64,000 bases of DNA from a virus. Location of the stretch: IMG/VR virus record IMGVR_UViG_3300030060_005952, positions 1 through 64,000 of that record. One strand, given 5' to 3'. The translations under genes and the position numbers were made by a program. Below are positions 8,874 through 48,900 of this stretch, in pieces; position 1 is the first letter of the stretch; the number at the start of each line of letters is the position of its first letter. Below the pieces are notes generated by a model that worked only from the letters and a program-made list of their open reading frames with translations, made no database searches and had not been told where the DNA came from.

Positions 8874-9190
8874 GCGAACGCTGCACTTGCCACAATACGT
8901 TAGTTGTGAAGAACCTCAATCGTTGGTTCAAGGAGAAGTGGGTGGACGTATCGAGAAAGGACCCGAAAACAGGCAAACATCCCCCGTGTGGACGGTCAAA
9001 GGCAAAATTATCAGGAAAGGGTTACCCGAAATGCAGACCCTCAGTAAAAGTGTCGAGCAAGACTCCGAAGACATCTGGAAGCATGTCAGGTGGACAGAAA
9101 CAGGCCGCAACAAAAAGAAAAAGGGCAAAAAAGCAGGGTGTTGGTGGGAAACCGACGATTGTTAAGTCATATTGGGTTAAAATCGTATAA
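8870..9190 (+). CDS. small basic protein (LxRWFKEKWVDV motif, DUF5872-like C-part)
   Basis: LNRWFKEKWVDV...PCGRS...YPKCRP. Confidence 0.7.
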   Translation: MSERCTCHNTLVVKNLNRWFKEKWVDVSRKDPKTGKHPPCGRSKAKLSGKGYPKCRPSVKVSSKTPKTSGSMSGGQKQAATKRKRAKKQGVGGKPTIVKSYWVKIV

Positions 9191-9266
9191 TTCTAATTAT
9201 TCTATTATTCCTTTAGATACAATAATAATTATTATAGTGTATAGATAGAATAATGAATAATTGGAA
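9191..9266. repeat. AT-rich imperfect palindrome of about 76 bp
   Basis: arms TTCTAATTATTCTATTATTC (9191-9210) and GAATAATGAATAATTGGAA (9248-9266) around the perfect 14-bp palindrome ATAATAATTATTAT (9222-9235). Confidence 0.8.
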
Positions 9267-9330
9267 ATATCCTCCTGTCTAACCTACAATTGGGTCAAAA
9301 CTCTTAAGATGTCCCCTATGTTGGCACGGC

Positions 9331-9978
9331 ATGAGGTCGGTTCACATGGATTGGAACAATGATGGTCAGGTTGATAACGCTGAACTAAGATTAACAGGTT
9401 TGATTTTAGCACAATCAGCACTAATAGGAGTAGCAGTGGGAGTCTTTGACTCAGGTATTTGGTTGCCAGCAGGTAATGGTGACCACGTTGTAAATGGCAT
9501 GACGTACGCAATGGGCGCTTTAGCAGTTCAAATTCTAGCTTATTACGTTTTCAAAATGTTCTTTGAGCAGTCAATGAAGGTTAGAGTGAATACACAAAAT
9601 CTACAACGTGATAGGGAAATCAGACTTAGAAGCATGCAAACAGAGCATGAACAGAGAAGGATAGATATGGAGCTTAGAATACAAGAGATGCAATTAGAAA
9701 GAGAACTCATGGCATTCAAGCAAAATCCTAGTCTTTTAATGCAGGAAACAATTACTGTGCCAGCTCCACCCAAACCCCAGAGTGGTGTAATGAGCTTAGG
9801 TTTGGATAGAATTGGAAATACGCAGGAAACATATACACCTCCTAGAGTTGTGCAAAATCCCGGCGTTACCACACTTTCTTTAAATCAAATGGCTGATGAT
9901 TTGGTAAAGGAAGAAAACAACAGTAATGTGCGTTTGAAGAAGGATGGAACCCCAGACCTTAGATACAAAAAGAGTTGA
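9331..9978 (+). CDS. two-TM membrane protein with EF-hand-like N-terminus and coiled coil
   Basis: DWNNDGQVDNAE; two hydrophobic helices; E/R/Q coiled coil; C-terminal RLKKDGTPDLRYK. Confidence 0.75.
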   Translation: MRSVHMDWNNDGQVDNAELRLTGLILAQSALIGVAVGVFDSGIWLPAGNGDHVVNGMTYAMGALAVQILAYYVFKMFFEQSMKVRVNTQNLQRDREIRLRSMQTEHEQRRIDMELRIQEMQLERELMAFKQNPSLLMQETITVPAPPKPQSGVMSLGLDRIGNTQETYTPPRVVQNPGVTTLSLNQMADDLVKEENNSNVRLKKDGTPDLRYKKS

Positions 9979-10247
9979 GGGAGCCTTCAATGGGACGTAT
10001 ATTCAAAACGCCAAAGGATGATTCTGTAGAAGAAACTTTGAGAGCCATGCATTTGGCTAATACTTTTGATAATACTTACGAATGGGGCATTGGTTGGCTT
10101 AGAACAATCATCATCAGTGGCGCTACTGCTCTCGCAGTTAGTGCAATAGAAGCTAACAGCGCATACAGTCTTTGGGAATTGACTGTTGAGTGGGGATACA
10201 GACAAGTAAGCTCTTTTGGAAATTGGTTGCTTGGACTGGTGCCTTAA
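9975..10247 (+). CDS. small membrane protein (start possibly ATG 9990)
   Basis: hydrophobic IGWLRTIIISGATALAVSAI segment; GAGGGAG RBS before ATG 9990. Confidence 0.65.
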   Translation: MREPSMGRIFKTPKDDSVEETLRAMHLANTFDNTYEWGIGWLRTIIISGATALAVSAIEANSAYSLWELTVEWGYRQVSSFGNWLLGLVP

Positions 10248-10961
10248 ATGAGTATGGCGGGTAGCGCCTTAGTTGGCGCAGCTATATGGGGTAGAACTCT
10301 ATACGATTCTTGGAGGCCAAGAAAAGTAGGAATTTATGGAGCATCTCTTGTTGGTAAGACCACTCTTGATAGATACATGACCACACCCGGTGAGATGGAA
10401 GATATACCGGAGGAAGAGAGAACTAGACATTACAAGTTGCTAAGTCAGTATATTTTACCAAAACCAACCGCTAAAAGAGTGAAATACGACAATCATACTA
10501 GATTAGTGCACTCTTCTGACATGGGTGGTCAAAAAGAATACTGGAATCTATGGATAGACGATATGGTAGCTAGACAGGTGGAAGCCGTTGTTTTTGTATT
10601 CGATGACCGTGCATTCAAGGGAGGTAAAGAAAGTTTAGACCAAATAGCCGGTTTCAAGTTTCTAGTAGATGTTCTTACAACTAGAAATTGGAGATACAGA
10701 AACTTAAAATCTTGGTGGAAAGGTAGAAAATACTCACCAAAAGTAATAATGCTTGTAGCTAACAAAGCAGATAGGTTCTTCGATGATACCGCAGCAAGAT
10801 TATGGCCACAAGGGAGAATAGGCGAGCACAAGATATTCGACCCGTTCAGAGATGACCTCATAAGATTACAAAAAGCTGGCATTCCAACTAAGCGCTCTTT
10901 TATGGCAACTAGGATAGGTTGGAACGTAGAACCTACTATGATAGAACTTCTGACCTCATGA
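10248..10961 (+). CDS. Ras-superfamily small GTPase, Arf/Sar-like
   Basis: G1 GASLVGKTT, G3 DMGGQ, VEAVVFVFD, G4 VANKAD; N-terminal hydrophobic helix. Confidence 0.85.
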   Translation: MSMAGSALVGAAIWGRTLYDSWRPRKVGIYGASLVGKTTLDRYMTTPGEMEDIPEEERTRHYKLLSQYILPKPTAKRVKYDNHTRLVHSSDMGGQKEYWNLWIDDMVARQVEAVVFVFDDRAFKGGKESLDQIAGFKFLVDVLTTRNWRYRNLKSWWKGRKYSPKVIMLVANKADRFFDDTAARLWPQGRIGEHKIFDPFRDDLIRLQKAGIPTKRSFMATRIGWNVEPTMIELLTS

Positions 10962-10996
10962 GTGACCTTTTTGATGTATAACGTTGTGCGATTAAC

Positions 10997-11194
10997 ATGG
11001 CTGGCGGCGGTTCCACCACTGTTCTTGTTTCCACTGGAGGCAAAAGCAACTCCCTAAGAACCACTTTTCCTATGTGGTTAGTAGAACAATTTGAGTTGAA
11101 ATCTGGACAAAAGGTAGAATGGAAGGTCGCATCTGATGATTCTGGGGAATTATTCATCAAGGTAAAGCCACGAGGTGTCTCCGATGGTGCTTGA
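10997..11194 (+). CDS. AbrB/MazE/SpoVT-type swapped-hairpin DNA-binding protein
   Basis: SLRTTFPMWLVEQFELKSGQKVEWKV...ELFIK pattern. Confidence 0.75.
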   Translation: MAGGGSTTVLVSTGGKSNSLRTTFPMWLVEQFELKSGQKVEWKVASDDSGELFIKVKPRGVSDGA

Positions 11195-12158
11195 TATCCC
11201 AGACAACATGTATCGCCAAGTGACTGGTCAAAGACTACAACCGACCCAATCACTTTCACAAATGAACGAAGCCGCAATGATTGCATTATCCCAACAAGGA
11301 AATCAGAATCTATCTCACGCTGCATTAGTAGAGCAAGCTGTTGCTCAACAGCAAATGCAAGTGATGGCACAACAGAAAAATCTAGAAGTTCCAAAAGTGA
11401 ATTTCTATCCTAGCACGCATCCTGACCCTAGAAAAGCTAGGAAGCAGGACATAAAGCAAGCTTACAAGTTACTTAAACCGACTAAGCGCTCTTTGTTAGA
11501 CCCCAGAAGATGGTTGGGTAGCAAGTATAGATACACCAAAGATACTGGTACTTGTGTTATCGATGGGTGTAATGTCAAAGAACTCATCGAGTATGACAAT
11601 CTTTACGCACGTATAACTGATGAGGAAACAGGAAGAAGCCTATGGGATATGTATTGGCAGAATCCTGTAACTGGACAAACTGAAGCTTTTGTAGCTCGTG
11701 AAGGAGTTACGAGTGGCAGAAGAATGAAGGGTACTTATTGCCCAGAGCATCTACATTTGTATCATTTACTATGTAAATGGGAAGAAGAGCAAGAAAAAGA
11801 AGATGAGATGAAACCATCTAGATTCCGCGATAAGATGAAGAAAGGAGTTAGTTTAGTTACTGTGCCCGTATCCATCATGTCTCAGAAACAAGGTCCCACT
11901 CATAGCTTAGTTCAGAAATATGAGAGTTTCTTTACTGAAATAGAGAAGGACGCAATCAAATCCAAAGGAATCAATGTCTGGCACATTCCCAATCCAGAAA
12001 CAGGAAACAACGATATAACCATGGTACAATTCGATATGAGAATGTTTCAAAAAGAATTACTTGAGTCTTCTATGCCTACACCGGCCTTCCAAGCATTTCT
12101 GAACCAACAGCCTCAAACCCAACCACCCATACCGCCCATACAGGAGGCTACACAATGA
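11175..12158 (+). CDS. hypothetical protein, possible Zn-binding (CxxxxC...CPEH)
   Basis: 327-aa ORF; GAGGTG RBS; Q-rich N-terminus. Confidence 0.75.
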   Translation: MSPMVLDIPDNMYRQVTGQRLQPTQSLSQMNEAAMIALSQQGNQNLSHAALVEQAVAQQQMQVMAQQKNLEVPKVNFYPSTHPDPRKARKQDIKQAYKLLKPTKRSLLDPRRWLGSKYRYTKDTGTCVIDGCNVKELIEYDNLYARITDEETGRSLWDMYWQNPVTGQTEAFVAREGVTSGRRMKGTYCPEHLHLYHLLCKWEEEQEKEDEMKPSRFRDKMKKGVSLVTVPVSIMSQKQGPTHSLVQKYESFFTEIEKDAIKSKGINVWHIPNPETGNNDITMVQFDMRMFQKELLESSMPTPAFQAFLNQQPQTQPPIPPIQEATQ

Positions 12159-12763
12159 GTTTGGGAATAACATCCAACAACACACAGCAAAGTGGGCTTT
12201 CCCTTGGTGTTTCTGGTATGCAAAATGGCTATCAGCAAAATAGCATGATGGGAGCTCAGAACAATTTTATGAACGGCATGATGGGAGGCATGGGAATAAA
12301 TCAACAGTATTACAACGCTCCAGTCGCGCCACCCAGTGACACTGAAATCCTAGCATCAATGCTTGGAACCATACAACCCATTGATAGATTCATCATCAGT
12401 CAAAATATGCCTATATTCGTAGAAATGCTAAGTAATATCTCTGCTTTTTCCATACTTAACATTCTAAAGAACTGCTCCTTCAAATTAGATGATGAAGGTG
12501 TTATGAAAATGGACTTACAATCACTACCTTCTGACTTACAGACTCTAAGTGCTGAAAATATAATAGCACAACTAAGTAATATGCAAAATGCATCACAACA
12601 AGCTGTTACCATGGCTCAACAAGAGCGTGATAGAATAATAGCGATTTCACAACAAAGTCTCCTTCAAGGCGCTCTGGGCGCAGCCTTGGAGGACCAAACT
12701 TTCCTTGAGAATGCCGGAAGTGCTGCAGGTGGAATGCTAAGAAGCGCTTTCGGAATGAGGTGA
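12155..12763 (+). CDS. hypothetical protein with Q/N/G/M low-complexity N-terminus
   Basis: 202-aa ORF, ATGA coupling, GGAGG RBS. Confidence 0.75.
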   Translation: MSLGITSNNTQQSGLSLGVSGMQNGYQQNSMMGAQNNFMNGMMGGMGINQQYYNAPVAPPSDTEILASMLGTIQPIDRFIISQNMPIFVEMLSNISAFSILNILKNCSFKLDDEGVMKMDLQSLPSDLQTLSAENIIAQLSNMQNASQQAVTMAQQERDRIIAISQQSLLQGALGAALEDQTFLENAGSAAGGMLRSAFGMR

Positions 12764-13023
12764 TTAACATGATGAGTGGAGGAAGTCCTACAGATTACAT
12801 ACCAAAACCGATTGCTGAAATGACTATGCAAATGATGTCTCCAAAAAGAAGTGTAATCATTGATATGGTAATGGTACAACTGATTAGTGCAATACTACTT
12901 GGGTTAGGCATTCTATTTTTCAGAGGTAATGAATTAACTGCATCTGAAACATCCACATATATGATTGGTGTCTTTGTATCTTTTTTGCTATTAACCTCAA
13001 TTTATGGTAGAATCACTAGATAG
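12760..13023 (+). CDS. small two-TM membrane protein (holin-like topology)
   Basis: two hydrophobic helices in 87 aa; GAGGTGA RBS before ATG 12769. Confidence 0.7.
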   Translation: MINMMSGGSPTDYIPKPIAEMTMQMMSPKRSVIIDMVMVQLISAILLGLGILFFRGNELTASETSTYMIGVFVSFLLLTSIYGRITR

Positions 13024-13055: not shown

Positions 13056-13733
13056 GTGGGCGAGCAGGTCACTAAGCGCTCTTGTGCATTTTGTCAACAT
13101 CCTGATAGAGCGATTTATGAAGAAGCAATGCTCAATGGTGAAATGACCGCCAAGCAATTAGATAAGGAAATGGGTTGGAGAGCAAACACTGCTGACAGAC
13201 ATTTTAGAAATCATATGGGTGAATACCATATGGCTGCAAATCCTAGTTGTGTAATTTGCTCACACCCAGACAGAGCAGAGTTTGAACATCGATATTTCAC
13301 AAATGGCTCAGAGTCAGACTCAATAGCAGCAGAGCTTGGAGTTGCAGAAAACACAGTATTTCATCACATGAAGTTTCATTTCCAACCATTAGTACAAAAA
13401 TCAGCGGCAACTGAGGTAGCCATCCAAGTTGGTAACGAAATGAATGTCTTACGTGGTAATGTGGAAAGATTAAACAGTAGGCTCAATGAATTTCTAGATG
13501 AGACTAGCATACATGAAGATGGTTTTGTTAGAGACGCAGTAAGTCTGCACAAAGAGGTTAGAGAATCTGTTAAGGATTTATTGAAAATGAACGATGCTTG
13601 GGGTACACAAAGTGATACACCACAAATAAATCAAACAATAAACGTCTTGAAAGTAGAACTTGCTAAGGAAAGTCCTGAAACTTGGAAGAGAATAAGAGAG
13701 ACACTTTTGGAAACGGAGGCTGAAGAAGTATGA
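13056..13733 (+). CDS. putative terminase small subunit with duplicated CxxCxHPDR Zn/HTH module
   Basis: CAFCQHPDR...HFRNH and CVICSHPDR...HMKFH repeats followed by coiled coil; upstream of terminase large subunit. Confidence 0.55.
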   Translation: MGEQVTKRSCAFCQHPDRAIYEEAMLNGEMTAKQLDKEMGWRANTADRHFRNHMGEYHMAANPSCVICSHPDRAEFEHRYFTNGSESDSIAAELGVAENTVFHHMKFHFQPLVQKSAATEVAIQVGNEMNVLRGNVERLNSRLNEFLDETSIHEDGFVRDAVSLHKEVRESVKDLLKMNDAWGTQSDTPQINQTINVLKVELAKESPETWKRIRETLLETEAEEV

Positions 13734-24564: not shown

Positions 24565-27500
24565 GTGCAAGAGAGCGACTATGTCATTCATCTTCGCGCT
24601 AGGGATGATTTACTCAAGAGCATAATTTCTTGTGACGATTATACTGAAGAGGCTACTGCCTATATTAATAGCCTACGAAACATAGTGAATAAGGAAATGA
24701 TACTACAGAACAACCCTGTTGATGATTTCTGCTATGAAGCCAGTACGATGTTGTTGTACAAAAAAACCATCGGTGACCTCTCAGCAGAGCTAGCGTTCGG
24801 AGAGCGTGGTGATGAGGGGTATGACTACGACAAAAAAGGCAGAATAAGCAGAAGAACTGTTGGCCCCGCATTTAATAATCACAGACATATAAATGAGATA
24901 ATCGACAATGAGAATATCGAATTAGCCTCATCGCTCTTCCCAAGGGTAGTTCCCGGTGATAGCAATTACAAACATCATCATTTTCATGAATCGATACACC
25001 CACTACGCAAGAAGAACAGCTCTACTGGTAATTCTAGAATGGTTGAGAAACTCTTGGGTTATGTCAGAAAAGACGACGATGGAAACAGCGTTGCATCCTC
25101 GCATGCTGATGCGGAGAGGGCACATGAGACACATTACGATAATTTACGTAATCCGATAATTGTAGGTCAAATTAGAAAATCAAAAAGAGCTGATATGGAT
25201 GATGAGATTACCCATGGCTTTTTGGGTAGGTTAAACACCAACGACTCAAATAGAACCATTTCTGAGCAAGTGGGTACTTCTGGTGCTTTTCAAGAGGGTC
25301 TGTATGAGAGGGCTTTCACAAAGTGGTCAAGTCAAAATCAAAAGAAGATTGACGAGGAGAAATCCCAAGGCGCCTCTGATAAAGACATCAGGGAAATGCA
25401 CCTTGAGGAAGCAGCTAAATTATGGCAGGGTAGAGATTTTGAGGAAGAGGAAATAAAATATGATGATGATGAAATCTATAGCAAGCTTTTTGCCGAAAGA
25501 GCAGGGGAGAGACAAGAGGGCTCTCGCATAGCAGAGGGCGTTCAGACAGAGTTTCCCACTGAGAGGCAACACCCTCACAGACTGGGACTCCTTGGGTATG
25601 GCCTTGGTTTGGAATGGCTCAGTCCCATTGAGAGAACCAAAGTCATCGAGCATCTTAAGGATAACAAGGGGGACACAAGCGAGAAAATAAAGCTCGATGA
25701 TGGCACTGAAATACCACTTGGAAGACTAAGGAGAAACTTTCAGAAGAGAATGACGCCTTTGTATCTCCACAGCCAAATGCCCCATAACCGGGGACAGCCC
25801 AATCTAGCTAAACACTTGGAAAGCGATGAGCTAGATGGCACAGAGTACACTGGTAGTGAAACGGAGCCAATTCGTAGCCTACTGGCAAAAATAGACCATG
25901 GGGTGCATGGGACCATGTTCGGTTCCTTATTGAACCATTATAATGAGCTACTAGAATTACAGGGCGACCAAAAACTAACAAAAATTCCCATCTATGGCGA
26001 AAAACGCACTAAGAAAATACGAGAAAAGATAGACGAGCTAATAGAAAAAGGAGTGGACGAGAAGGAGGCTCTTAGAACAATTTTGAAGGTAGAGGATTAT
26101 GCTCCCGTTAGTAATTTCACCATACCCCAGTTGAAGAGGCATCTGAAGGAGCATCCCCTCTCTGAGCTTCTAACTGACGAGGGTAAAAAGCCCCTCGCTC
26201 ATGAGAACATGAAGGCAGATGACTACATCAACCAGTTAGAGGAGATGTACAGAGATGGAATGTCATTAGCTCGTGACAGCAAGGACATAGCTAATGCCAA
26301 TGCCGTGTTCGCCAAGAGTGCGGGCCCGGACATAAGGGATGTACCCGAAGAAATAAGAAATCACTTCATAGAGAAAAATGGGACTTTGAGAGGGCTATCT
26401 GATTACTGGGCGCATGACTTGCAGGTTGGTAGCAATCCCATAGAATCCACTACTTTCTTTGACATGCTGAACAGTATCGCACCGGGTCTGTTTGGTGAAT
26501 TTGAAGCGCATCACGAATATCCAGATTTTCAATTCTTCGTACCCAGACCAGATATGTCGGGTTTCTTGGGCGCCATGCACCACGTCGTCAGGGAGAGAGG
26601 CGAGAGCTTCAGTCCTGCCGAGATAATGAGCATGCATGACCAGAGCTTGGGTGCTAGTCATGTAAATTTAGGTGACAAAAAACCAAGAAATAGGGCCAAT
26701 GGTAGCGATACCGCTCATTCACTCACACCAAGAGCCACCACCTTCTGGTCAAGGAGCAGGAACCCAAAAGCCGAAATAACCAGAGATAGTGTTGGATTTT
26801 TAAAAACTAAAGGCGAAAAAAGAGCCATACATGAAACTCAGTATCACGAGTTCGGAACCAAGACAGGTAGCACTAAATCCGAGGCTCTGGATAGCAAGAA
26901 GGCGCATAACTCCTCCGAGATAATGCGTGAGTATCTAATGTCTGGTGCCCAATACAAGTTCGGGTCAATTGACCCTAACACTGGTAGGAGGAGGCTCGGC
27001 TCGCCTGTGATGAGAATACCAGTCAATGAGATGCTTGGAGGCAAACACGGTTTTCCTTTTGAGGACGATGAAGAGGGCGGATACTCGGCTTTTGAGAAAG
27101 CTCTTTTTGCTTTAAGTGGCTCTTTGGGCATGGATGACACAAAGAGAATAGCGGAGCTTCAAAGCGAGCTGGAGGAGATTGAGCTATCAGGCGAGGATGC
27201 CTCTCAAGAGCTGATAGATGAACTGAAGGGACGCATACACATGCAACAGGCTAATTTACGAGCTAAAATTTCGGGTTTTGACAAAACCAGATTACAAGAA
27301 AAGGAAAGAAGAGCCGAAGCTGAAGAAAGAGCTAGAATGGAAGTCGCCAAGAACATAACCATACCTGCTATGCTAGAGATAAATCCTAACTTGCTTGACC
27401 CTAATAATCCTGAGCAAACCGTGGCTGACCTATCCCAAGCCATGCATGATGCTGAGTTGATTATGAAGCACATGCCTCACGGCTTCCATGGTCAAAGTAT

Positions 27501-29808
27501 CAGGGACATCATGATTGGGGATGCTGTTGATGAGCAGACGATAGATGCCATGGTCGGTGGCGACATGTTCCGTCGAAAAGCCAATGTGCTTGAGAAAGAG
27601 GGCTTTCCGCTTAGTTTCCCAGAGAGCGGAAAAGTCGAAGATATGCATGTCACAGCGAGTTTGATAGGCATAGGATTAGATGACCCCATGTACTTCACTG
27701 ACCCCGGATACAGGGAGTACATGCGGGAACTCCTAGAGAGTCTGGAGGGCAAGCCCGCTCATTATGCGATGACTACCGCTCAACTTGCAGCACACGCTAA
27801 CGAGGACTTCCATCTCTTTGACGATGATGGGATGAAAGGGGACCCAATGAGAGCCCATAAATTGATGGAGGATGAGTTAACACGCTATAGGAGTCAAATC
27901 CGTGGTCTTAAACTTCCTGACAAACACAAAGGCGATTTTAATAACAATAATGAGCATTACAATTCGATAAATAACAATTACATGAAACTCAGCATGGCAC
28001 ACAAAGGCACCAGTGCTATACAACACGGTCTTTCTTTGAGTAGCTTACCCAAAGACATACATGGTAATGAGGATAAAGGCAAAGGTACAGAAAGACTTCG
28101 TTATGAGTGGGCTATGGCTAGAGCCAAGAGAAAGGCCAACAGTCTAGTTCTTTTCAATCCAGAGGCAAGGGTGGCGGCACCAACGCCTCCCCCTGCTATG
28201 CCTGAAGGACAGATGACACTGGACCAGTTTGGCGATACTGGTAGTAATTTGAAGCGCCCGATAAAAATAGGAGATGGCAAGATAGGTCCAGTCACTAACC
28301 CAAATTCGGATGCCATAATGGGGTCCCGTTACACAAGTGCAGGTGTTCAAATGCAAATGGGCACAGAACTACCTGCAGCCTCCGCTTCGCTTAATTTAGG
28401 CTACGATGGAAATATGGAGTATGGGACAAATACCAGCGCTGGCCCAGCGGTACCGCCAAGTGAGCCAGTAATAAAAGAATTGATGGAACACTTTCAAGAG
28501 GGTTCTTACAGTCAGATGGATGCTTATTTTCAAGCCAATGGTGTCAATGAGGCTATGTTACCAAGCACCACTTCCAACATGGAGAGGGTATCGGAAAGCA
28601 ACCCAATGTCAGGATTGCAGGTCCCACATGAGGTAGCTAAGTCCTTACCAAAGGAAATGCCACTAATAGAGCCCTATCACAAGATATTCGACATGGAGGA
28701 CCTGCAAGAGCTACGGGGTTTCACCGGGGAGTGGGTTGTCTCTGTAATGGAAGAGGGCACTAGAGTGAAAGTAACTAGGAAGTCGAATAGGATAGAGGTC
28801 AAGGATGACGACAATGAGGATGTTGGCACAAGCGATGGTATGAGAAGCTCCCTTAGAAAAATAGGGAAGAACAACTATGTCATGGACGCTGTGCTTAACA
28901 GCTCTGGTTTGCACATATTCGATATCATGCACTACGATGATACCGATGTTACTGATATGCCCACTAGGGAGAGGATAAAGTTACTACGTGGGCAGTTTGA
29001 CAGTAACGAGAATGTTTTCGTGCCCGGACCGTTCAATCTGAAAGTCACCGATGATGATGGTTTGAGCGATGCGATAAAATTTCTACAGAGGGAGAATAAG
29101 GACTCAAAGCTACTACTCAGGGATGCTAAGTCCACTTACATGAAGGGAGAAGAGAAGCATCCGAAGTGGATATTGATGACCAAATCCGATGATGACTACC
29201 ATGTGCCATTTGGCATGGAAATAGATGGAGAGGTCTTCATACTGCACTTTGACCATGACATACTCAAGTACGACATAGTGGAGGATAGCTTGGAAAACCC
29301 ACGTTCAGCTTTGGGTGGCCTCAAAGACCGGGACTATACGATGATACTAGCCAAGAGTCTGGAAAAATACTGGGAGCCCGCTTTCCAACAGATGCTCAAA
29401 GCGGAGAAGAGAAAAATAAAAGAAATCGTTGAAGAAGATGAAGACGATAAAGAAGAGGATGAGGGCATAAGCGAGGAGGATGCCAAGAGAATAGGCAGAC
29501 AGAGCGGGGGCGTCTTAAAACCAAATGAGGACCAGAATATTCTGCTAAAGCCGAGCACCATACAGACTTTGGAAAAAATAGAGAAAATACTTGACTCTTT
29601 GGAAAAAGGACATTTTCCAATGACAGCAGGTAAGGGTCTGGGTGTTGATGTAGGTAGCGACATAGACAGCCCTAGAGGACCCACTAAGTTGACTAATGAG
29701 GCAACTCTACCGGATTATGACATGAAGGAAAGACCAGAACAGGACCCTGAGAAGCCGGAGGACTATCCAAAAAGAAAGAAAATAGCCTCTCGGTCTAACG
29801 ATTCTTGA
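24565..29808 (+). CDS. 1747-aa putative internal head polyprotein with inactive ATP-dependent ligase-like domain
   Basis: DLLKS N-terminal site; GQMTLDQF; ligase motifs EWVVSVMEEGTR, VMDAVL, IFDIM, LLLRD, KWILM. Confidence 0.8.
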   Translation: MQESDYVIHLRARDDLLKSIISCDDYTEEATAYINSLRNIVNKEMILQNNPVDDFCYEASTMLLYKKTIGDLSAELAFGERGDEGYDYDKKGRISRRTVGPAFNNHRHINEIIDNENIELASSLFPRVVPGDSNYKHHHFHESIHPLRKKNSSTGNSRMVEKLLGYVRKDDDGNSVASSHADAERAHETHYDNLRNPIIVGQIRKSKRADMDDEITHGFLGRLNTNDSNRTISEQVGTSGAFQEGLYERAFTKWSSQNQKKIDEEKSQGASDKDIREMHLEEAAKLWQGRDFEEEEIKYDDDEIYSKLFAERAGERQEGSRIAEGVQTEFPTERQHPHRLGLLGYGLGLEWLSPIERTKVIEHLKDNKGDTSEKIKLDDGTEIPLGRLRRNFQKRMTPLYLHSQMPHNRGQPNLAKHLESDELDGTEYTGSETEPIRSLLAKIDHGVHGTMFGSLLNHYNELLELQGDQKLTKIPIYGEKRTKKIREKIDELIEKGVDEKEALRTILKVEDYAPVSNFTIPQLKRHLKEHPLSELLTDEGKKPLAHENMKADDYINQLEEMYRDGMSLARDSKDIANANAVFAKSAGPDIRDVPEEIRNHFIEKNGTLRGLSDYWAHDLQVGSNPIESTTFFDMLNSIAPGLFGEFEAHHEYPDFQFFVPRPDMSGFLGAMHHVVRERGESFSPAEIMSMHDQSLGASHVNLGDKKPRNRANGSDTAHSLTPRATTFWSRSRNPKAEITRDSVGFLKTKGEKRAIHETQYHEFGTKTGSTKSEALDSKKAHNSSEIMREYLMSGAQYKFGSIDPNTGRRRLGSPVMRIPVNEMLGGKHGFPFEDDEEGGYSAFEKALFALSGSLGMDDTKRIAELQSELEEIELSGEDASQELIDELKGRIHMQQANLRAKISGFDKTRLQEKERRAEAEERARMEVAKNITIPAMLEINPNLLDPNNPEQTVADLSQAMHDAELIMKHMPHGFHGQSIRDIMIGDAVDEQTIDAMVGGDMFRRKANVLEKEGFPLSFPESGKVEDMHVTASLIGIGLDDPMYFTDPGYREYMRELLESLEGKPAHYAMTTAQLAAHANEDFHLFDDDGMKGDPMRAHKLMEDELTRYRSQIRGLKLPDKHKGDFNNNNEHYNSINNNYMKLSMAHKGTSAIQHGLSLSSLPKDIHGNEDKGKGTERLRYEWAMARAKRKANSLVLFNPEARVAAPTPPPAMPEGQMTLDQFGDTGSNLKRPIKIGDGKIGPVTNPNSDAIMGSRYTSAGVQMQMGTELPAASASLNLGYDGNMEYGTNTSAGPAVPPSEPVIKELMEHFQEGSYSQMDAYFQANGVNEAMLPSTTSNMERVSESNPMSGLQVPHEVAKSLPKEMPLIEPYHKIFDMEDLQELRGFTGEWVVSVMEEGTRVKVTRKSNRIEVKDDDNEDVGTSDGMRSSLRKIGKNNYVMDAVLNSSGLHIFDIMHYDDTDVTDMPTRERIKLLRGQFDSNENVFVPGPFNLKVTDDDGLSDAIKFLQRENKDSKLLLRDAKSTYMKGEEKHPKWILMTKSDDDYHVPFGMEIDGEVFILHFDHDILKYDIVEDSLENPRSALGGLKDRDYTMILAKSLEKYWEPAFQQMLKAEKRKIKEIVEEDEDDKEEDEGISEEDAKRIGRQSGGVLKPNEDQNILLKPSTIQTLEKIEKILDSLEKGHFPMTAGKGLGVDVGSDIDSPRGPTKLTNEATLPDYDMKERPEQDPEKPEDYPKRKKIASRSNDS

Positions 29809-33830: not shown

Positions 33831-34115
33831 ATGGGTTTCGATTTGCAGACTCTCGATATTGACGACATCGAAAGGGCTCAAAAGCAGAACATTCGTTCAG
33901 ATACTCATTATCAGGCTAATGTAGTGGTTGATGAAAAGAATCCCCTGAAAGGGGCGATTAGCAAGCAAAGAGCAAATGCCAAGAAAGCCGCCGATGTACT
34001 CAATATAGGCTCAGGCACTCGATGTACTCACTGTGGTCTTCTTCACTTTATGTGGAGGGAAACCTGTGGCTCCTGTAGAAAACCCATGAACTATAACATG
34101 GGGGTCAAAGAATGA
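33831..34115 (+). CDS. Zn-ribbon protein
   Basis: CTHCG...CGSC. Confidence 0.7.
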   Translation: MGFDLQTLDIDDIERAQKQNIRSDTHYQANVVVDEKNPLKGAISKQRANAKKAADVLNIGSGTRCTHCGLLHFMWRETCGSCRKPMNYNMGVKE

Positions 34116-35626
34116 CATTTCAGTATTCTTGGGACTTTCTCAAAGCCAAGAAAAAGAAGAAGAAATCAAAAACTGGTACGAAATACGTTAGACTGCAAGG
34201 CGGTGGTCGTGGTGGAGCAAAACTTCAATCATTAAGCAAGTATATCACTGATGTGGCTAAGAACAAATATCTACGGGAAGAAGCTCCAAATTTGGGTCCT
34301 GAAATTTTCAAAAAGCCCACAGAAGTACCACCACTCAAGGATGGACTTGATAGGTCCAAACCCAAAAATCAAATAATGATTGATAGACATTCACAAGCTA
34401 CCAATGAATACGAAAGAAAAATGAAAAACTATCGACATTTCTGGGACAAAGTAAATGAAATTAAAAGTGAATTAAACAGTTATTATTATAAAAATGGTCA
34501 TGATGCATTCATGAGGAAATATAAGGATTATGCAAAGCCAGCTTCTGAAGTAGGAAAACTAACTGGTGCAGAGTCAAGAGCTGCTAAAACTGGTAGAATG
34601 GATGCTTTGGATAATCAATTGACTTCAGAGCAAATGGAAGCTGAGAAACCAGTAGACCCTATTGAATATTTGAAAAACAGATTGGCTTCTAAGACGCCTG
34701 AGAGTGAAAGTGATGTCAATTCTTTGATGACGGGTTTGTTGAGTCAAATGGGCCCCGATGCTTTATCCGACTCTGAGCAAAAAGAATTAAGAAATGTTTT
34801 AACACAAAAGTATAACATACAACCAGAATCTATGGCTGATAAACTAAAGCGTGAGTTGAACGTGCAGCGTAGACAACCAGAATCCAGAACTTCCAAAGAG
34901 GAAATGATGGCCGATTTGGATAAATTGCCTGAAGACATAGACTTTCAAACAGGCTCAAAAGCCCTCCTAGAAGGTTTTCAACCACAAGGAATGCAGGACA
35001 TTAACAAAAAGGCTCACTCTTTACTAAGTCTTATGAATCCCGAAGAAAGAACTGACGATTCTTGGGGTAAGATAAGAAATGCTCTTGCACAAAAATATGG
35101 CTTCGATGTCCCCGAAGCATCTCCAGCGGCTAATATAGCAGCTGCTAATCTAGCGAGAAATCCAATTCTACCAAAACCATCAGAGGAAAAGCCACCAGTG
35201 ATGCCACCACAAGGTCAAATGACACTAGACCAATTTGGGAAACCACCCACGAGAAAACCACCAGTGAGGGTTTCCAGACCTGTTCAAGAGAAAGTAAAGG
35301 AGCCCGCACAATTAGCACAAGAACAATCTGACAGACGTTTCGATGAGAGACAGGCAAAGACAGAACAATTCTTTGCACCTGAACCAACACCTGCACCGAG
35401 CGATGAACTTACTGATGAGCAAAGGGCAAAAATAGCACAAGCTTACCCTGATGTGAAACCATTACAACCAGACATGCCTGACATATTTGATGCAGGTGGT
35501 AACCTTTCCCAGACAATGCCTGAGCCCAGTCCTTCATCTCAAGGAGCTGGTTCATCTGAAGTAATAGGTAATTTATTCGACCAGATGATGGATAACTTTA
35601 GACGAGAACAAGGAGCTGGTCAATAA
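34112..35626 (+). CDS. AW-LK-type leader protein with PIP box, inserted in the neck region
   Basis: MTFQYSWDFLKA; GQMTLDQF; more AT-rich than its neighbours. Confidence 0.75.
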   Translation: MTFQYSWDFLKAKKKKKKSKTGTKYVRLQGGGRGGAKLQSLSKYITDVAKNKYLREEAPNLGPEIFKKPTEVPPLKDGLDRSKPKNQIMIDRHSQATNEYERKMKNYRHFWDKVNEIKSELNSYYYKNGHDAFMRKYKDYAKPASEVGKLTGAESRAAKTGRMDALDNQLTSEQMEAEKPVDPIEYLKNRLASKTPESESDVNSLMTGLLSQMGPDALSDSEQKELRNVLTQKYNIQPESMADKLKRELNVQRRQPESRTSKEEMMADLDKLPEDIDFQTGSKALLEGFQPQGMQDINKKAHSLLSLMNPEERTDDSWGKIRNALAQKYGFDVPEASPAANIAAANLARNPILPKPSEEKPPVMPPQGQMTLDQFGKPPTRKPPVRVSRPVQEKVKEPAQLAQEQSDRRFDERQAKTEQFFAPEPTPAPSDELTDEQRAKIAQAYPDVKPLQPDMPDIFDAGGNLSQTMPEPSPSSQGAGSSEVIGNLFDQMMDNFRREQGAGQ

Positions 35627-41879: not shown

Positions 41880-42994
41880 TGGCCACTGGGACGCCAATCC
41901 GTTTGGTTCGTGAGGACGGCGGTTTGATATCCCTGAATGCCACTCAGATAGCACTGTCTACTGAAAGAGAATTTGGGCCGAACGCAATGCCCTTTGCTGG
42001 TAGTGAGCGCCTCGCTATAGACTTAAACATAAACAAAGCCATAATCAGAATAGATGGTTTCTTTTCTGATGATACTCAAGCTACAGGAGCAGCCGCTGCT
42101 GAAGCTAAGATAAATTTCAATGTCAATACGGCAAAACAAAGCTTCGTCTCTTCTAGTAATTTAGGCGCTTTTTTCTCACTTACAGACTCTCCTACCCTAG
42201 TCTTAAAATCAACAAGCGGGACGCTTTCTAGTATTGTTTTTACAGAGGACAATACTGCCACTACTGGTTATAATTCATCTACTAATGTTCTAAAAGTGAA
42301 TGTTGCTAGTACAACTGCATTGCAGTTAGCTAATGCTGTTAGTTCAGCAATAAACGACCAGCACTCCTCACTCTACACGGCCTCACTATACGACGCATTG
42401 GATAGGGATGGCAATTCTCAAACTAACTCAGGCGTCTTGATTAAGCAAGTATCTAATGGAAAAGCGGGAAATAACAAGTCCACTCCTAGCTTCTCCACAG
42501 GATATTTTTTCCTCCCACCACAAGTAGAGAAATTTTCGGGAGGCAGAGATGCTGAACAGAAATCAGCAGGGGACAAGGCTCAAGATTTGTATTCCATAGT
42601 CAATAACAGTAGCAGAACGCTTAGGAAAGTAGCTTTTGACCGCATACCTGATTTTTTTGAGCTTTTTGGAAGAAAAACATCATTCTTACCTGATTTTATA
42701 ACCGGCGGCTCCGGTAGTGATTACATAGTAGGCATACAAATTCCCTACAATAGCAAAATAGAAGCCGGTAACAATGAGTACACTGCCAAGAACTTCTTCA
42801 TGCCCACTGGTCTTTTTCATAATAAAAATGACAAGGACTCTACAAATGCAAAACCCGCAGGAGTTGAGTTCGATGAGTCAAATGACTTCACGGGCATTCA
42901 AGGAGGTATTTCATCTATGGACATAATATACGATGCTGGTGAGGCCATCTATAACTACACAATGACTTTCCTACCTGCTGATGCGATGCTGTGA
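41879..42994 (+). CDS. tail tip/distal tail (baseplate hub-like) protein
   Basis: position after TMP; C-terminal YDAGEAIYNYTMTF. Confidence 0.55.
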   Translation: MATGTPIRLVREDGGLISLNATQIALSTEREFGPNAMPFAGSERLAIDLNINKAIIRIDGFFSDDTQATGAAAAEAKINFNVNTAKQSFVSSSNLGAFFSLTDSPTLVLKSTSGTLSSIVFTEDNTATTGYNSSTNVLKVNVASTTALQLANAVSSAINDQHSSLYTASLYDALDRDGNSQTNSGVLIKQVSNGKAGNNKSTPSFSTGYFFLPPQVEKFSGGRDAEQKSAGDKAQDLYSIVNNSSRTLRKVAFDRIPDFFELFGRKTSFLPDFITGGSGSDYIVGIQIPYNSKIEAGNNEYTAKNFFMPTGLFHNKNDKDSTNAKPAGVEFDESNDFTGIQGGISSMDIIYDAGEAIYNYTMTFLPADAML

Positions 42995-42998
42995 TTTT

Positions 42999-45900
42999 AT
43001 GACTGTGCTGGGGAGAAGGAATCATGCGTTTTTCTTCGATGGCGTTAGCGATAGCATAGTAGTTCCACAAGGTCATTTTTCAAGCATCGGAAAAACGAAT
43101 CCAGAGGGTCAAGAAGATATCAGGGGTCTTCTCAACCCAGAACCCAGAGGTGGCTCCGAGTCCATAACATCAGGGCTTTTCAACGAGGAGATTACAATCG
43201 AGACTTGGCTCATGCCAGACCAAGGAGGCACTGTCCTTGAGAAGAGTGGACAGTACAAGCTTTCAGTTGGCAAGATACAAGAAGCCGCTCCAGCTACTTT
43301 CACGATAGAACTGACCAATGGCGAGGCAGTGGAATCTCATACAATCACAACCGGGAGTCACAATGGTACTAGGTACACTGGTGCGATATACCCATTGAGT
43401 GAGCAAAACGGCATGTTCGATACCAAGGACAGTGGCCTGAATAGAAATCACAGGCCACTCCTAAATGTCGTAGCTACGTATCGTTCTGGTAGGATAGAGC
43501 TTTACGTCAATGGAGTTCTAATGGCTAGAAAAATTCTGAAGGACAAATCCTTGAAATTAGCAACTAGTAGTGAGAATCTCTACATTGGTGGCAAGGGTGG
43601 TGAGTACAGGGGAGTAATAGAAGCCATACACATAACCAATGACTTCAATCCAGACTTTACTGCTAGAACTGCCCCATTAAGAAGAGCCTCCACTATGTTG
43701 CTCTATAGATTTGAGGAGCCTATAACGACGTATGATGATGTCTACACACTTGCATCTTCGGCATCATCCGGTGCCACTAGCATTTCTATAAGCACGACTG
43801 AGGCTGCTGCATTAGCGACAAAACTCACAGGCTCATCTGTCACAAGTGGCACTATCACTTTCACATCTTCACCATACACAAGCGGTAACTACAAGGTCCT
43901 GCAAAGCACATCATCTGGAGTTACCCAACACGATGTGGCTCATGTTCCATACAATCTACTTCTGAAGCCAGTCGGTGTAAATGACCTCACACAAGCACCT
44001 ACTAGCCTTCCCCCTGAGAGAGTCAGACTACAGAGCATAAACGTAGGCACAGGCGCCTTGACTGTAGCCAGCATACATCTTGACTACAACACAGCCAGCA
44101 GTGGTCAGAGGGGCTTGCTCCATGACCACGCTAGTGGGGTTCAATTCGTTGTGATAGGGGCTGACCTGCTGTTAGACTCTGGTACAGGTAAACCGTACCA
44201 GCCTCCACACTATTCCTCAAAGGCCATCGATAGAACTGGTCAGATGGTTATAGACGAAGGACCTTTGGGACAACATGGTTTTGTCTACTCCTCACAAATG
44301 GCGATTAGCACTGATTCACCGAACAATCCCTACGCAGTGACTTGGCCCACTACCATATCGACTGAGTTATCAATTGGTCATTCCGGGCGTCACACTCTCA
44401 ATCATGTTGATGGTCACCACTATCTCAGGATGCTACCAAAGCCAAATGAGGAAATAATAGACATGGAAATCAATGGCGTGGCTGATAAATACAAAGCACT
44501 CTATGTTGACTCACAACAAGGTATAGCAGAGCAGTTGCCCGTAAACACAGAAGTAAGCATTCTAAGAAACGTAGGCCAGTTCACAGTCAATAGGGTGGTC
44601 AGTAGCACCACTGTGAACACAATCTACAACTCCCATCAAAGCACTGGTAGCACGGCTAATGGGACGAGAAAGCTCATAGCGATAGGTGGGACTAATTTTG
44701 ACTTCACTCCTTTCTTCCTAAAAGCTCCAATACATGACAAGGGTGCAACACTAGACTCGACTGTAAGAACACATCATCTAAGACCAAGCAAGACCAGTAG
44801 GGTGGCAATCCTAAACGTACCAGCTCTCTCAGGTTCTGACTACAACATGTCCCCTTATGTTGAGATACACTACAACGCCATAGACTTGAGTGGCGCTAGC
44901 ATGGCAACAGAAAACAATGTTGCTTGTCTAATGGTAGAGAAAACCGTGCCAGCCGGGGACACCGCCATCGGCACTGGTGGAGCCGCTACTACTATCTATG
45001 ATTTGATTGATGCTCAAATGGGGACTTTCACAGACGCTACCTGTGATACCAATCACACTAGCGGTGTTAGTGATGGTTCAACCACCAGTGTAAGGCACAT
45101 CACGATGGATAGCACTTCTTCCTTAGCAGTGGGAATGGAGGTTTCAGGGACTGGCATACCTTCGGGCGCATTTGTAAGTGCTATCAATAACTCAACTGCG
45201 TTTACACTCAGTCAGGACACAACGGCCACTAACACGAATACCACATTGACATTCACTAGAGTTGGTTTGACATTGCATGCACCCGGTGGCTACATAGACA
45301 TTAACACTGATGATTTCGCACACAAGCAGGAGCTTTTGAACCCGCATTCCCTCTCAGGCGATAACAGTGAAGGCTTTGATGCCGATTTGACTCTAGACGA
45401 GTCGTTAACACCCGGTAGTGGTTATACCCCATATGCCTCTGATACTAACACAAACACCACACCCAGTGTGATAGAAGATTCCACCAGCAAGACCACTACA
45501 CACGAGTCTTCATTCCACAAACTCTTCTTTGACCCTCTGCCATCAGAGAAGGACTTAGTTGACTTTTCTGATTTTCAGAGAATGGATGTCATATCATCTG
45601 GCTCTAACGCAGGTGAACCAGATGTGTTGGTCACTTCCTCTAACTCGCCCATATACGAGTCATTTGACATCATAGACAATGTGGAGATAACCACAGTTGA
45701 CTCCAACATGAGATTGATAATACATCCAAGCGACAGGGCTAGAACCAACCAGTTGCACTACGCTCAGGATGCACTCAATACCAAGGGAACCCCAAATGAA
45801 GTGTCAATTCACTACATGATGTCCCGTGCTAAGGTCAAAGGTGTATTAGAGGAGGATAACGTAGAGGGTAGAAGCTACACCACTGTCGAGTGTTGGGGCT

Positions 45901-48900
45901 TACAGAACAACATCGGTAGCAGAAACATCTCAGCAATTAGCTCAGGTAGCCCTGACTCCAACGTGGTCAAGGAGATTGAGCCTAATGCTCCTGTTGTTTC
46001 AGTCACTCTTGGAGGGCCGGGTCAAGGGGGTGTTGATACCAAACCCACTTTCACCAAGAGTCCCTTCAGTCACAAGCCCTTCTCAACTAGGAGGGCGTAT
46101 GCTGTTGCCACAAAGGAGTTCGTTTACAATCACTCAAGTGGAGCTTTTACTATCAATGTGCAACCGCTTAATAATCAGTCTTCTGACATGAAAAGCTGGG
46201 GCACTTTTGGTTTTCCTAAGTCTGGTAGAGTTTACTTTGCTGATGGTAGTAGCGCCAAATACGATTCTAGAACTTTAACCGCTTTTACTTTCTCTACTGC
46301 TACTGCCGGTAGTGGCGACTTCATCACATCTGATGGGAATGAGTTCACTGGTATTCTACCGTTGTTGAAAAACATAGGAGTGACAACCAATTCAGCTACT
46401 GGGGTTAGTGGCACGTTCGCTTTCAACGCTACTCTCTTCAGTGAGCCTGACTTTGGCGATGAGTCAATGATAGACAATGGTACAAACGTGAATGACAGAA
46501 TGTTCCAGTCCCTCAGTGATATCTCACATGACTATCAGCTTGGTACTCAGTATGCCAGCACTAGGGCACTTGTTGAGATACCATTCTTCTCAAACCAGTT
46601 CTTCAATAATCCAGACAGTGGCACATTCGTTGGACCCGGCAATGCCTTCAAGATTCATCTCGACGCCACTCACACGGCACATACCTACAATCCCAGTCCT
46701 GTGGGTAGAAGACCAAAGGGCATCGAGCCAGCAGACAGGGAGGCTAACTCGGCTTACTCAATCTCCATAGCTAAAGGCGAACATGTGCCTTACAGTAGAA
46801 TAGTGAAATGGGATTCTTCCAACAGAAGGATATACGTTGAGGATGCATCGAAGTATCCAGCACCATCGGCTAGTGGTTCTTTCAAGAATCTGACATCAGT
46901 ACCAAGATACAGAAGGGCATTCTTGAGTAGTGGCGAGTGGGTGGTGTACAGTGCAGTTGATACTTCTAACAACTACCTGACCGTACCAGCTAACCTTTCT
47001 TACGTTTTTTCAACTAATTTCATCAATGAACTCAGGCGCTCTGAAAGACTACCTCTGCTTGTTGGGCTACACGACGACACAGCTACGGCAATGGCCTCAG
47101 ATGTCTACACTCCGTCATCTGAGTTTGAGAGTAGAGGCGAATATTATTATGACCAAGCCAGCGCAATGACTCAAGGTGGTAATGTTGACTACGGACTCAG
47201 GCAGTACGTCAGCGCTGTTTCTTTCAAGAGTGGTCCCGAAACCAATCCGCATGCTCCTCGTGTTGAACCTAAGAGGGCAAAGGGAGAGATTGTTGGAATT
47301 AATGCCGAGAGGACAACAACTGATGGAGGTAACACGTATGTTGTATCACTTTCTGAAGAGGACTTTGCTCGCTTTCCTAATCTTGGTAGCCGCAATTCTA
47401 ATACAGCGAGCGGGGGAACAATAGGCGATTTATTGTATGAAGCTGTAGTAGATGTCAATGGTACTGAGTACAGGTTTCACTACTACGGTCATCTTGATGA
47501 AATCTCTGGCACTAGTAGTAACACTGCCATACCTAACTCAGCGATAGTCATAGCACATTACGAGAAGACAGGCAGTTACTTCACACCTAGCGACTTGATT
47601 GGCTCTGAGGTTGTTCTCAAGCAGAGGACTAGGAGGGTAATGTACGATGAGTACATAGCCGCTTACGCTGGTGGTTCTTTCACCAATAACATACCACCTG
47701 CTCTAAGCACTGTAGACCCTCTGTACAGGGAGCTTCTGAACAACATTTACTTCGGCGCAATTTTTTCAGCTTCAGCTTCGGGCGGTGGTGGAACTACGCT
47801 AACAGTCACTGGGACAAACAGTGTGAATGACCTGTTTGATTTCAACGTGCGAAAGGACGACAAGATATTCTACAAGTACGCAGATGGTCTAGGTGATGTC
47901 AGAGTAGGTTTCTTAGGAACCGTAACCGAGCATATAGCTGATACCAACGCACTCAAGTTTGAGATTGACACGACCAGTCTCCATAGCACCGTGACAACTC
48001 AATTAGCCGCTGATGGTGGAGCTCAGATTGGTGTCTTGGTCAATGACTTCAAGGATGTCGATGCAGTCCTAAACGCCACTTGGTTGAATCCATATGCACC
48101 GGGCGGGCTAAGGGATGGCGACACTATCTGGGCTAACATGTCTTACAATAACCCACATGCTGTTGAGGGACTCTTTGCCAAGAGCAGGGGTGTCTACAAC
48201 GAGGGGGAGGTCTGGAGCGAGTTCAATGGCGGGGAGGGTACTTTAGCCGCTAGCAACCCCAGAGATAGCATACCGTTGGAGAACTTCCTGATAGGTGCCA
48301 ATGCTCTTGAAACTGCCAGAAACTACGCTCAACACGTCAACAGAACGATTGAGGAGAACTATGTGTCTCTTGGTCTATCCGCCTCTTTAGCACCCACTGT
48401 AGCATACGTAGACCCATATCTAGCCAACGAGGGACATGCTAGGGTCTTGCTCTATGATGTTGTGCATGACAGGGAGTTCATTGCATTCCAAGACATTCAC
48501 ATGCAGGTTCAGTCGTCGGCTGATGCTACTCACATAGGTTGGAACAGACATGTAGTAGAAAACACTGACACGACTATGACGGACTTGGCTGTTAGCCTCC
48601 CAGCTACCAACGGTGCTGCTCCGTATGCTTGGACCACACAGATAGATGTGGCTAATGGTTTTCCTTCTCAAAACAGATACATTCGCTCAACACAGCAATC
48701 TAAGTTCATAGAGAGCGCATATGCACATGACTTGGCCAATAAGCAGAGTGATGACCTCACAGGTCAAACTGTCTATTCTGACAACGCCAGAAGAAACAAC
48801 TACTCCAGATTATTTGGAAAGGCACATGGTCACCACGTCCACGTAGGTTTCAGCATAAACGGTGCTGCATCGAATCAATCCTACTCATTCAGCACGCCTC

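Follow-up and report, generated by a model that had tools for sequence, protein, structure and literature searches.

What does a tailed virus of archaea do with a small GTPase of its own? The question is raised by a locus in the 64,000-nucleotide (nt) stretch of DNA analysed here, positions 1 to 64,000 of IMG/VR virus record IMGVR_UViG_3300030060_005952 (hereafter the window). Between positions 9331 and 13023, seven open reading frames (ORFs) succeed each other on the + strand, which also carries the GTPase motifs and the next ORF, 13056, described below. We call them genes A, B, GTPase, D, E, F and G, the GTPase (10248..10961) being 237 amino acids (aa) long. A preliminary description of the locus had taken this protein for an Arf-like GTPase embedded in a bounded operon of membrane proteins. 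We found instead that it represents a deep-branching, virus-only lineage of the Ras superfamily, which could not be assigned to the Arf family, and that it belongs to a four-gene core (A, B, GTPase and E) kept in three divergent clades of viruses. How this core might act on the host membrane is the second question, to which only a tentative answer can be given.

The motifs read at 10248 are indeed where they had been placed: G1, or P-loop, GASLVGKTT at residues 31-39 (10338..10364), G3 DMGGQ at residues 91-95 (10518..10532), the W99/W102 pair followed by AVVFVFD at residues 113-119, and the guanine-specificity motif G4 NKAD at residues 172-175 (10761..10772). Among 87 unique orthologues, 12 motif positions are invariant, namely G31, G36, K37 and T39 in G1 (87/87), R58, T59 and H61 in switch I (R58-T59-x-H61, 10419..10430), D91 and G94 in G3, and N172, K173 and D175 in G4. 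Other invariant residues are W102, D105, M106, R109, D119, R121 and H194. The glutamine of G3 is not conserved, as the position following DxGG (residue 95) is Q in 55 orthologues, E in 20, D in 9 and H in 3, and the G5-like position of the family reads (M/V/I)(A/S)(T/S/A). The invariant T59 is the likely G2 threonine, because the viral switch I, IPEEERTxH, aligns in hhalign with the IPHETRR of ArvA, a vesicle-forming small GTPase of Euryarchaeota and DPANN (PMC10927574); T74, another candidate for this role, was dropped in its favour. This motif conservation is far above chance. Judged by these residues, the G domain is intact, strongly constrained and of the guanine-nucleotide-binding type.

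The predicted structure agrees with this assignment. An AlphaFold2 model built on a 30-sequence alignment reached a pLDDT of 88.4 and a pTM of 0.86, and a Foldseek search with it returned small GTPases of all kinds (E about 1e-8), the nearest solved folds being Arf6, Sar1 and SRbeta. Compared to Arf, the model has about 55 extra residues, located in a longer switch I region and in a helical insert (residues 127-165). By sequence and predicted fold, the protein is a genuine Ras-superfamily small GTPase, of the TRAFAC class of P-loop proteins. Giant viruses of eukaryotes are known to encode small GTPases of the Ras superfamily, and among predicted viral structures only these giant-virus GTPases matched the model. 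The Rab, Ran and Ras proteins of Nucleocytoviricota differ, however, in being recognisable recent captures from eukaryotes, whereas the family studied here is a deep orphan lineage for which a host homologue was not found.

This family is large. It forms 491 clusters at 90% identity in marine metagenomes and is present on 184 IMG/VR contigs; some members carry the automatic JGI label 'GTPase SAR1 family protein'. When 1.84 billion representatives were searched in full with HMMER, no more than 78 matches were obtained, and the best of them, either fragments or complete proteins of 240-252 aa, apparently belong to the same family. A tblastn search with the GTPase of annotated phage records, from which those close to the window may be missing, gave no match, no fused form was seen among longer proteins (this is weak evidence), and no pattern match to P0127-like relatives was found in IMG/VR.

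The preliminary description had taken DxGGQ plus an N-terminal membrane helix as the signature of Arf/Sar1 proteins, mainly eukaryotic and Asgard. Part of this likeness is real: the DxGGQ...W...FVxD pattern is common to the viral protein and to Arf/Sar1, including the Asgard ArfR proteins (GerdArfR1, PDB 8OUN/8OUM; bioRxiv 10.1101/2024.02.28.582541), and once spurious Walker A repeats in RecA concatemers were set aside, the best PDB sequence-profile matches were GerdArfR1 (8OUN, E 5e-6) and Arl8 (E 2.6e-4). Yet membership in the Arf family did not hold up. The Pfam Arf model (PF00025) scored 12.2 bits on the window GTPase, for a cut-off of 22.3, and across 30 family members only 6 reached E<0.1, the best at 0.0048. 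All Pfam matches of these 30 proteins are sub-threshold, and they are spread over Roc (20), MMR_HSR1 (13), GTP_EFTU (6), Arf (6) and SRPRB (3). NCBIfam gave nothing more than the generic small_GTP domain, at 19.6 bits for a cut-off of 42.5. Using as a reference panel the proteins of one Asgard-labelled metagenome-assembled genome (MAG), each labelled by its best Pfam model, hhalign matched the viral family to Arf-type proteins at 97.5% (score 82) and equally well to Ras/Rab-type proteins at 98.1% (score 92.5), over 164-169 columns. Since the Arf and Ras types of this panel matched each other with a score of 173, the viral family is an outlier to both. Moreover, the catalytic Gln conserved in Arf (or Sar1-type His) after DxGG is not kept in the viral family, and its switch I, in which the Arf-type PT(I/V)GF pattern is lacking, lines up with that of ArvA and not with that of Arf. 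The restriction of the signature to mainly eukaryotes and Asgard archaea also overlooked ArvA of Euryarchaeota and DPANN (PMC10927574).

The phylogeny that had been proposed as a check left the family unplaced. In maximum likelihood trees (LG+C20+F+G4) all viral proteins grouped together (100/100), with a stem about 2 substitutions per site long. In trees with outgroups it fell outside Ras+Arf+Rag (92/87), and a second tree put it on the ArvA/MMR_HSR1 side of a 96/92 split. Approximately unbiased (AU) tests rejected no placement: p was 0.29 and 0.31 for the viral family with Arf+Rag, 0.29 with Ras, 0.12 with canonical ArfR, and 0.37 with ArvA, the latter clade costing only 0.66 log-likelihood units. 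Long-branch effects may play a part in these placements. The Asgard-labelled panel MAG turned out to have an ArvA-type GTPase of its own (L136, G001:C93:21401-21829), which, although chosen to serve as an MMR_HSR1 outgroup, fell within the ArvA cluster of the tree. Ras-superfamily status was upheld; a grouping with Arf was neither recovered in the best trees nor rejected. Because the tests of Arf membership fail or do not decide, we file the GTPase as a deep, unplaced Ras-superfamily lineage with Arf/Sar architecture.

The other element of the Arf likeness, an N-terminal hydrophobic helix, was recovered in silico in all 30 members examined. The extension that precedes the G domain (residues 2-22, 10251..10313) is a helix in the model. 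It is bipartite, with a small-residue hydrophobic stretch followed by an 11-residue amphipathic segment and by basic residues just before beta1. The hydrophobic moment of the amphipathic half (muH11) is 0.36-0.78 in 30/30 members, compared to 0.61-0.65 by the same measure for the helix of GerdArfR1, which is also of comparable length. The hydrophobicity maximum of the extension (KD19) is only 0.40-1.34 across the 30 members, so it is not a transmembrane (TM) span. An anchor of the SRbeta type was therefore ruled out: SRbeta has a true N-terminal TM anchor, while the viral N-terminus stays below TM hydrophobicity, and the SRPRB model matched just 3 of the 30 members, weakly. As the hydrophobic-then-amphipathic character is kept in clades whose sequences are unrelated in this region, the property itself is probably under selection. 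We predict that the extension is a conserved membrane-type helix, lying in the plane of the membrane, to which it would bind.

To which genes is the GTPase tied? The preliminary description had suggested following the synteny of all seven genes across magroviruses, and three clades could be compared. In clade 1, that of the window, the order A-B-GTPase-D-E-F-G-13056-14131 is kept on one strand in 80 close loci (ORFs downstream of G are named by their start position). In clade 2, where identities to the window are 34-41% for the GTPase, 64-65% for the major capsid protein (MCP) and 45-46% for the large terminase (TerL), D is missing from the order, which reads A(2TM)-B(1TM)-GTPase-E-F-G(2TM)-13056. 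The clade 3 GTPase has 30-40% identity to that of the window and belongs to the series chaperonin-A-B-GTPase-E, after which come unrelated genes; F and G were not detected in this clade, apart from one weak F-like ORF in locus L084. The chaperonin gene, of the Cpn60/TCP-1 type, immediately precedes gene A and has the same orientation (L081 5250-6785, L084 4820-6481, L107 3095-4633). In the 110-kb record of clade 3 (G209), no relative of the window's MCP or TerL was detectable; this record may belong to the poorly understood magrovirus 'group D'. The co-conservation of the seven genes was thus confirmed for A, B, GTPase and E, limited to two clades for F and G, and to one for D. As only A, B, GTPase and E are kept in all three clades, where they are collinear and closely spaced, they form the invariant core, and to judge from its gene order this core moves as a unit between genomic contexts.

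The three small neighbours A, B and G are membrane proteins as predicted from hydrophobicity. Gene A (9331..9978, 215 aa) has two hydrophobic helices, at about residues 19-43 and 56-77 (KD19 2.04), beyond which the protein is helical and charged and then varies towards its C-terminus; conservation extends over both helices and the FKMFFE junction, as expected from the two-TM protein first described. The EF-hand-like loop also ascribed to it is confined to its closest relatives (Pfam E 0.21), and an EF-hand was ruled out as a feature of the family. Gene B (9975..10247, 90 aa), whose stop abuts the GTPase start, has the one central hydrophobic helix announced for it. This helix is borderline in the window (KD19 1.46), and clades 2 and 3 have a 72-94-aa ORF with one TM at the same place (profile E about 1e-4). 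Gene G (12760..13023, 87 aa), present in clades 1 and 2, is likewise the two-TM protein expected. Its orthologues of 81-87 aa have two TM helices and a short basic C-terminus ending in RITR or SF-R; they are holin-like in size and topology only, and 15 of them matched no holin family among the PHROGs.

The last core member is gene E (11175..12158, 327 aa), whose start in the divergent clades lies at the GTPase stop codon, overlaps it or follows it by a few bases. The protein is an orphan with the Cys/His character noted earlier: C127, C189-P190, H192 and H197 are conserved in the alignment and may form a metal site. Its 811 relatives are all unnamed, and no Pfam, sequence, fold or atlas match was obtained. 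Gene D (10997..11194, 65 aa), found in 72 of the 80 close loci of the window's clade and not in clades 2 and 3, is a DNA-binding-type protein with the SpoVT/AbrB-MazE swapped hairpin. Its assignment to the AbrB type was borne out, since PF04014 matched 10/10 orthologues at E<0.1 (best E 1e-5), the window copy itself scoring 15.5 bits, below the cut-off of 24.7. Gene F (12155..12763, 202 aa; clades 1 and 2) does have the Q/N/G/M-rich N-terminus described, together with a conserved C-terminal domain; library scans assigned it to no family, and it had no usable atlas match. Beyond the locus, the next ORF (13056..13733, 225 aa) contains two Cys/His + helix-turn-helix (HTH) repeats (HTH_20 E 1.4e-4, GerE E 3.7e-3) and has weak matches to small terminase subunit (TerS) and DNA-binding PHROGs. 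Co-conserved in clades 1 and 2 but outside the core, this protein could be the small terminase subunit or have a regulatory role.

The limits of the block were less sharp than first thought. Upstream of gene A, the palindrome that was to bound it is not a discrete one: we found an intergenic, AT-rich, low-complexity tract of ~90 nt (9181..9270), with one exact 10-nt inverted pair among otherwise imperfect inverted repeats (70-83% complementary) and no discrete GC hairpin. It is possible that this tract is an archaeal promoter or regulatory region; a promoter scan upstream of gene A found no more sites than in shuffled sequence. On the downstream side the block has no boundary, as small gaps or overlaps lead from it into 13056, 13730, 14131, 15435 and TerL. 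The claim that none of its genes has the AW-LK leader was verified by a regular expression search of the window (F..[AS]W..L(L)K): the leader is found at nine ORF N-termini between 1731 and 7356, internally at residue 152 of ORF 7353, and at the N-terminus of ORF 34112-35626.

Which virus carries the locus? The whole record is 99.6 kb long, with a CheckV completeness of 94%, and the window is its first 64 kb. The late genes of the window encode a T4-type TerL, a portal, a prohead protease and an SU10/HK97-type MCP, whose nearest named relatives are those of the haloarchaeal tailed viruses HCTV-1 and HVTV-1 (34% identity). In the rest of the record, on the other strand, are a thermosome-type chaperonin, a family B DNA polymerase (PolB) and a PD-(D/E)XK nuclease. 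A size of ~100 kb, a halovirus-like HK97 morphogenetic block, PolB and a chaperonin are the features by which magroviruses are recognised, the thermosome subunit being present in groups A and D, and the record fits group A (PMC5434244). The gene content thus supports an archaeal tailed virus of the magrovirus type (Magrovirales, viruses of Poseidoniales, or Marine Group II, which are abundant archaea of the ocean), in keeping with the archaeal origin first proposed. A single-amplified genome of Poseidoniales includes a virus-sized contig of clade 2 (AG-422-I20_NODE_2, L105, 106,262 nt) with the cassette, MCP (64% identity) and TerL (45%), so that the host assigned to this virus group is supported directly at the level of a single cell.

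Some other ORFs of these viruses are worth recording. In the window, a single ORF of 5549 aa (42981-59630, 16.6 kb) lies downstream of the tail region; a 1747-aa ORF (24565-29808), with no Pfam match at E<=0.001, lies between the portal and the prohead protease; and a 464-aa ORF (59627-61021) has a sub-threshold match to an Imm33-like domain (23 bits for a cut-off of 27). In the 96.6-kb viral record of locus L087, the TerL orthologue (G211:C1:42601-44037) contains one in-frame TGA, for which a sequencing error, a split gene or recoding are possible.

Did the virus take its GTPase from its host? The viral profile found no cellular copy in 81 evenly sampled Poseidoniales genomes, the single match being the 106-kb single-cell contig with viral MCP and TerL, so a recent capture from the host is not supported. 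These genomes, like those of Thermoplasmatota used below, are samples, and many are incomplete. In a collection of species genomes, the other matches came from MAGs with the labels Maricaulis, Parvibaculum, Flavobacteriales, Methanobacteriota and Promethearchaeati (an Asgard archaeon). The contigs in the bacterial and Asgard-labelled MAGs (L101, L102, L103, L104 and L107) are short or virus-sized; because one match is 97% identical and the divergent ones that were mapped (L104, L107) carry the full viral cassette, we read them as binning artefacts. Such labels on magrovirus contigs are almost certainly contamination, and could mislead inferences on hosts or gene transfer, for instance towards an 'Asgard' source of the GTPase. 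From these searches, the family is a deep lineage restricted to viruses.

The most informative comparison is with ArvA itself (OapA, HVO_3014). This protein begins with an amphipathic helix; it is classified under MMR_HSR1, and its best HHpred match is Arf. Its gene shares an operon with arvB (DUF2073) and arvC, which encodes a DUF2072 Zn ribbon. ArvA is proven to take part in deforming the cell membrane of archaea, and its knockout and overexpression control vesicle production (PMC10927574). Using the OapB model, we recovered arvA-arvB-arvC operons from Thermoplasmatota genomes, with ArvA proteins of 212-230 aa. These read ...RIGIYGPPNAGKTTLANRI... where the viral GTPase reads ...KVGIYGASLVGKTTLDRYM..., that is, both are small G proteins of similar length with an amphipathic helix directly before beta1, a P-loop region near-identical in pattern (GIYG....GKTTL) and a switch I that aligns. 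They are also alike in being poorly captured by Pfam, the viral family only below threshold, and in the Cys-containing protein that follows the GTPase in the operon. The differences are nevertheless clear. hhalign gave 95.9% over only 73 columns (helix end, P-loop and switch I); G3 is DTPG in ArvA and DxGG(Q/E/D/H) in the virus; cellular ArvA passes the NCBIfam small_GTP model at 58.7 bits, compared to 19.6 for the viral protein; and the viral family is found only on viral contigs. The viral A, B, D, E, F and G proteins all scored below 1% against ArvB and ArvC in hhalign, none of them gave a Pfam match to these partners, and gene E lacks the paired CxxC ribbon of ArvC. By these comparisons the viral cassette is not a copy of ArvABC, and by analogy ArvA is the closest functional precedent for its GTPase.

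What could such a cassette do? Our preferred reading, in which we place somewhat less than even confidence, is that the core is a virus-encoded GTP switch at the host cytoplasmic membrane. The GTP form of the GTPase would expose the N-terminal helix and dock on the membrane, as Arf, Sar1 and ArvA do; once docked, it would organise or activate A and B, both small membrane proteins, as well as G in the clades that have it, with E, and F where present, as its regulators or effectors. The output would be a timed change of the host membrane late in infection, since the genes that come straight after the cassette in clades 1 and 2 are those of packaging and morphogenesis. Membrane binding, partnership with the neighbours, timing and an output in egress are all points that we infer.

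Among possible outputs of this switch, control of virion release is the one we favour, though we regard it as doubtful: it would account for the late-gene context in clades 1 and 2 and for three membrane-protein neighbours, in a group where, according to a review of archaeal virus egress, the main players in the egress of tailed viruses are completely uncharacterised (PMC10791045). The same review points to the small GTPase required for the formation of extracellular vesicles in Haloferax volcanii. In lambdoid phages, the lysis cassette sits just upstream of the terminase genes. The viral locus resembles such holin cassettes by its small membrane proteins at the same position and by the size, topology and basic C-terminus of gene G; it differs from them in having no homology to holin families and no recognisable endolysin beside it, and no known holin system includes a GTPase, to our knowledge. 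In its boldest and unlikely form, the proposal would be that A-B-GTPase-E is the missing release machine of archaeal tailed viruses, in which a virus-specific GTPase of ArvA/Arf-like type, once docked on the membrane, triggers small membrane proteins to disrupt or vesiculate the envelope, the GTP-timed lysis clock being built on a G protein and not on a holin.

Several observations weigh against a membrane switch with this output. No partner in the cassette has a recognisable function, gene E being without fold or sequence match and gene G matching no holin family, and the neighbours include no recognisable lytic enzyme, nor one that degrades a cell wall or S-layer. Instead of binding membranes, the N-terminal helix could mediate contacts between proteins. 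Late timing may not hold for all clades, because the clade 3 cassette is not beside packaging genes. Finally, the switch cycle may differ from that of Arf, as the equivalent of the catalytic Gln varies.

The main rival retains the membrane and replaces lysis by vesiculation. In this scheme the viral GTPase would do the job of ArvA, budding vesicles or reshaping membranes (as decoys, for export, or as assembly platforms), and would supply a function that the host order appears to lack. Indeed, OapB/ArvB (PF09846) was found in 74 of 151 sampled Thermoplasmatota genomes and in 0 of 81 sampled Poseidoniales, an order that may therefore be without the ArvABC vesiculation system. The ArvA-like architecture (helix, GIYG....GKTTL, the match of switch I to IPHETRR, 237 aa compared to 212-230 aa), the small cost in likelihood of a clade of viral proteins with ArvA and the control of vesicle production by ArvA (PMC10927574) all speak for it. 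On the other hand, the match to the ArvA profile is local and its overall score is below those of the Arf or Ras matches, G3 is DxGG and not DTPG, and no viral partner resembles ArvB or ArvC. Tailed viruses have no envelope, moreover, and budding would be of no obvious use to the virion. Altogether we consider this scheme quite unlikely.

A module that alters receptors, transport or the envelope, blocking secondary infection or redirecting host physiology, is another possibility. For such host takeover or superinfection exclusion speak the membrane-protein partners and a gene content that varies by clade (D in clade 1 only, F and G undetected in clade 3 save for the weak F-like ORF). But the four-gene core is kept to a depth at which MCP and TerL are no longer detectably similar, which is atypical of fast-turnover exclusion genes; its neighbours in clades 1 and 2 are late genes, and PADLOC matched no defence-system model among the seven proteins. 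We hold this explanation to be very unlikely.

The same low probability goes to a role in virion assembly, where the GTPase would control how capsids are assembled, DNA is packaged or tails are attached, with A, B and G perhaps providing a membrane scaffold. It draws on the position of the cassette in clades 1 and 2, directly upstream of the TerS-like HTH protein, TerL, portal, protease and MCP. In clade 3, however, the cassette follows the chaperonin and the record has no detected relative of MCP or TerL; the membrane-type helix and the TM partners are left unexplained; and we know of no Ras-type GTPase in tailed-virus morphogenesis. As for a cytosolic regulator acting in translation, ribosomes or signalling, with a helix for protein contacts and membrane neighbours that are coincidental operon mates, the sub-threshold matches to MMR_HSR1 (13/30) and GTP_EFTU (6/30) and the ArvA/MMR_HSR1 side taken in one tree give it some ground, but top fold matches to Arf, Sar and SRbeta, the absence of extra RNA-binding or ribosome-binding domains, the conserved helix character and an invariant collinearity with TM proteins in three clades make it highly improbable too.

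In the literature, we found no paper describing a Ras-superfamily GTPase as a conserved gene of an archaeal or bacterial tailed virus, and the magrovirus papers examined do not mention one. Magroviruses are among the most abundant archaeal viruses of the surface ocean, and their hosts are uncultivated. Should the GTPase turn out to be a cytosolic regulator, its family would still be a large and new one among viral G proteins. A module acting on membranes, as in our preferred reading of a GTP switch, would make a third case of membrane remodelling driven by G proteins, either independent of eukaryotic Arf/Sar and archaeal ArvA or very anciently diverged from them. It would then offer a concrete, clonable candidate for archaeal virus release, and add a deep branch to the history of small GTPases, relevant to the origin of membrane trafficking.

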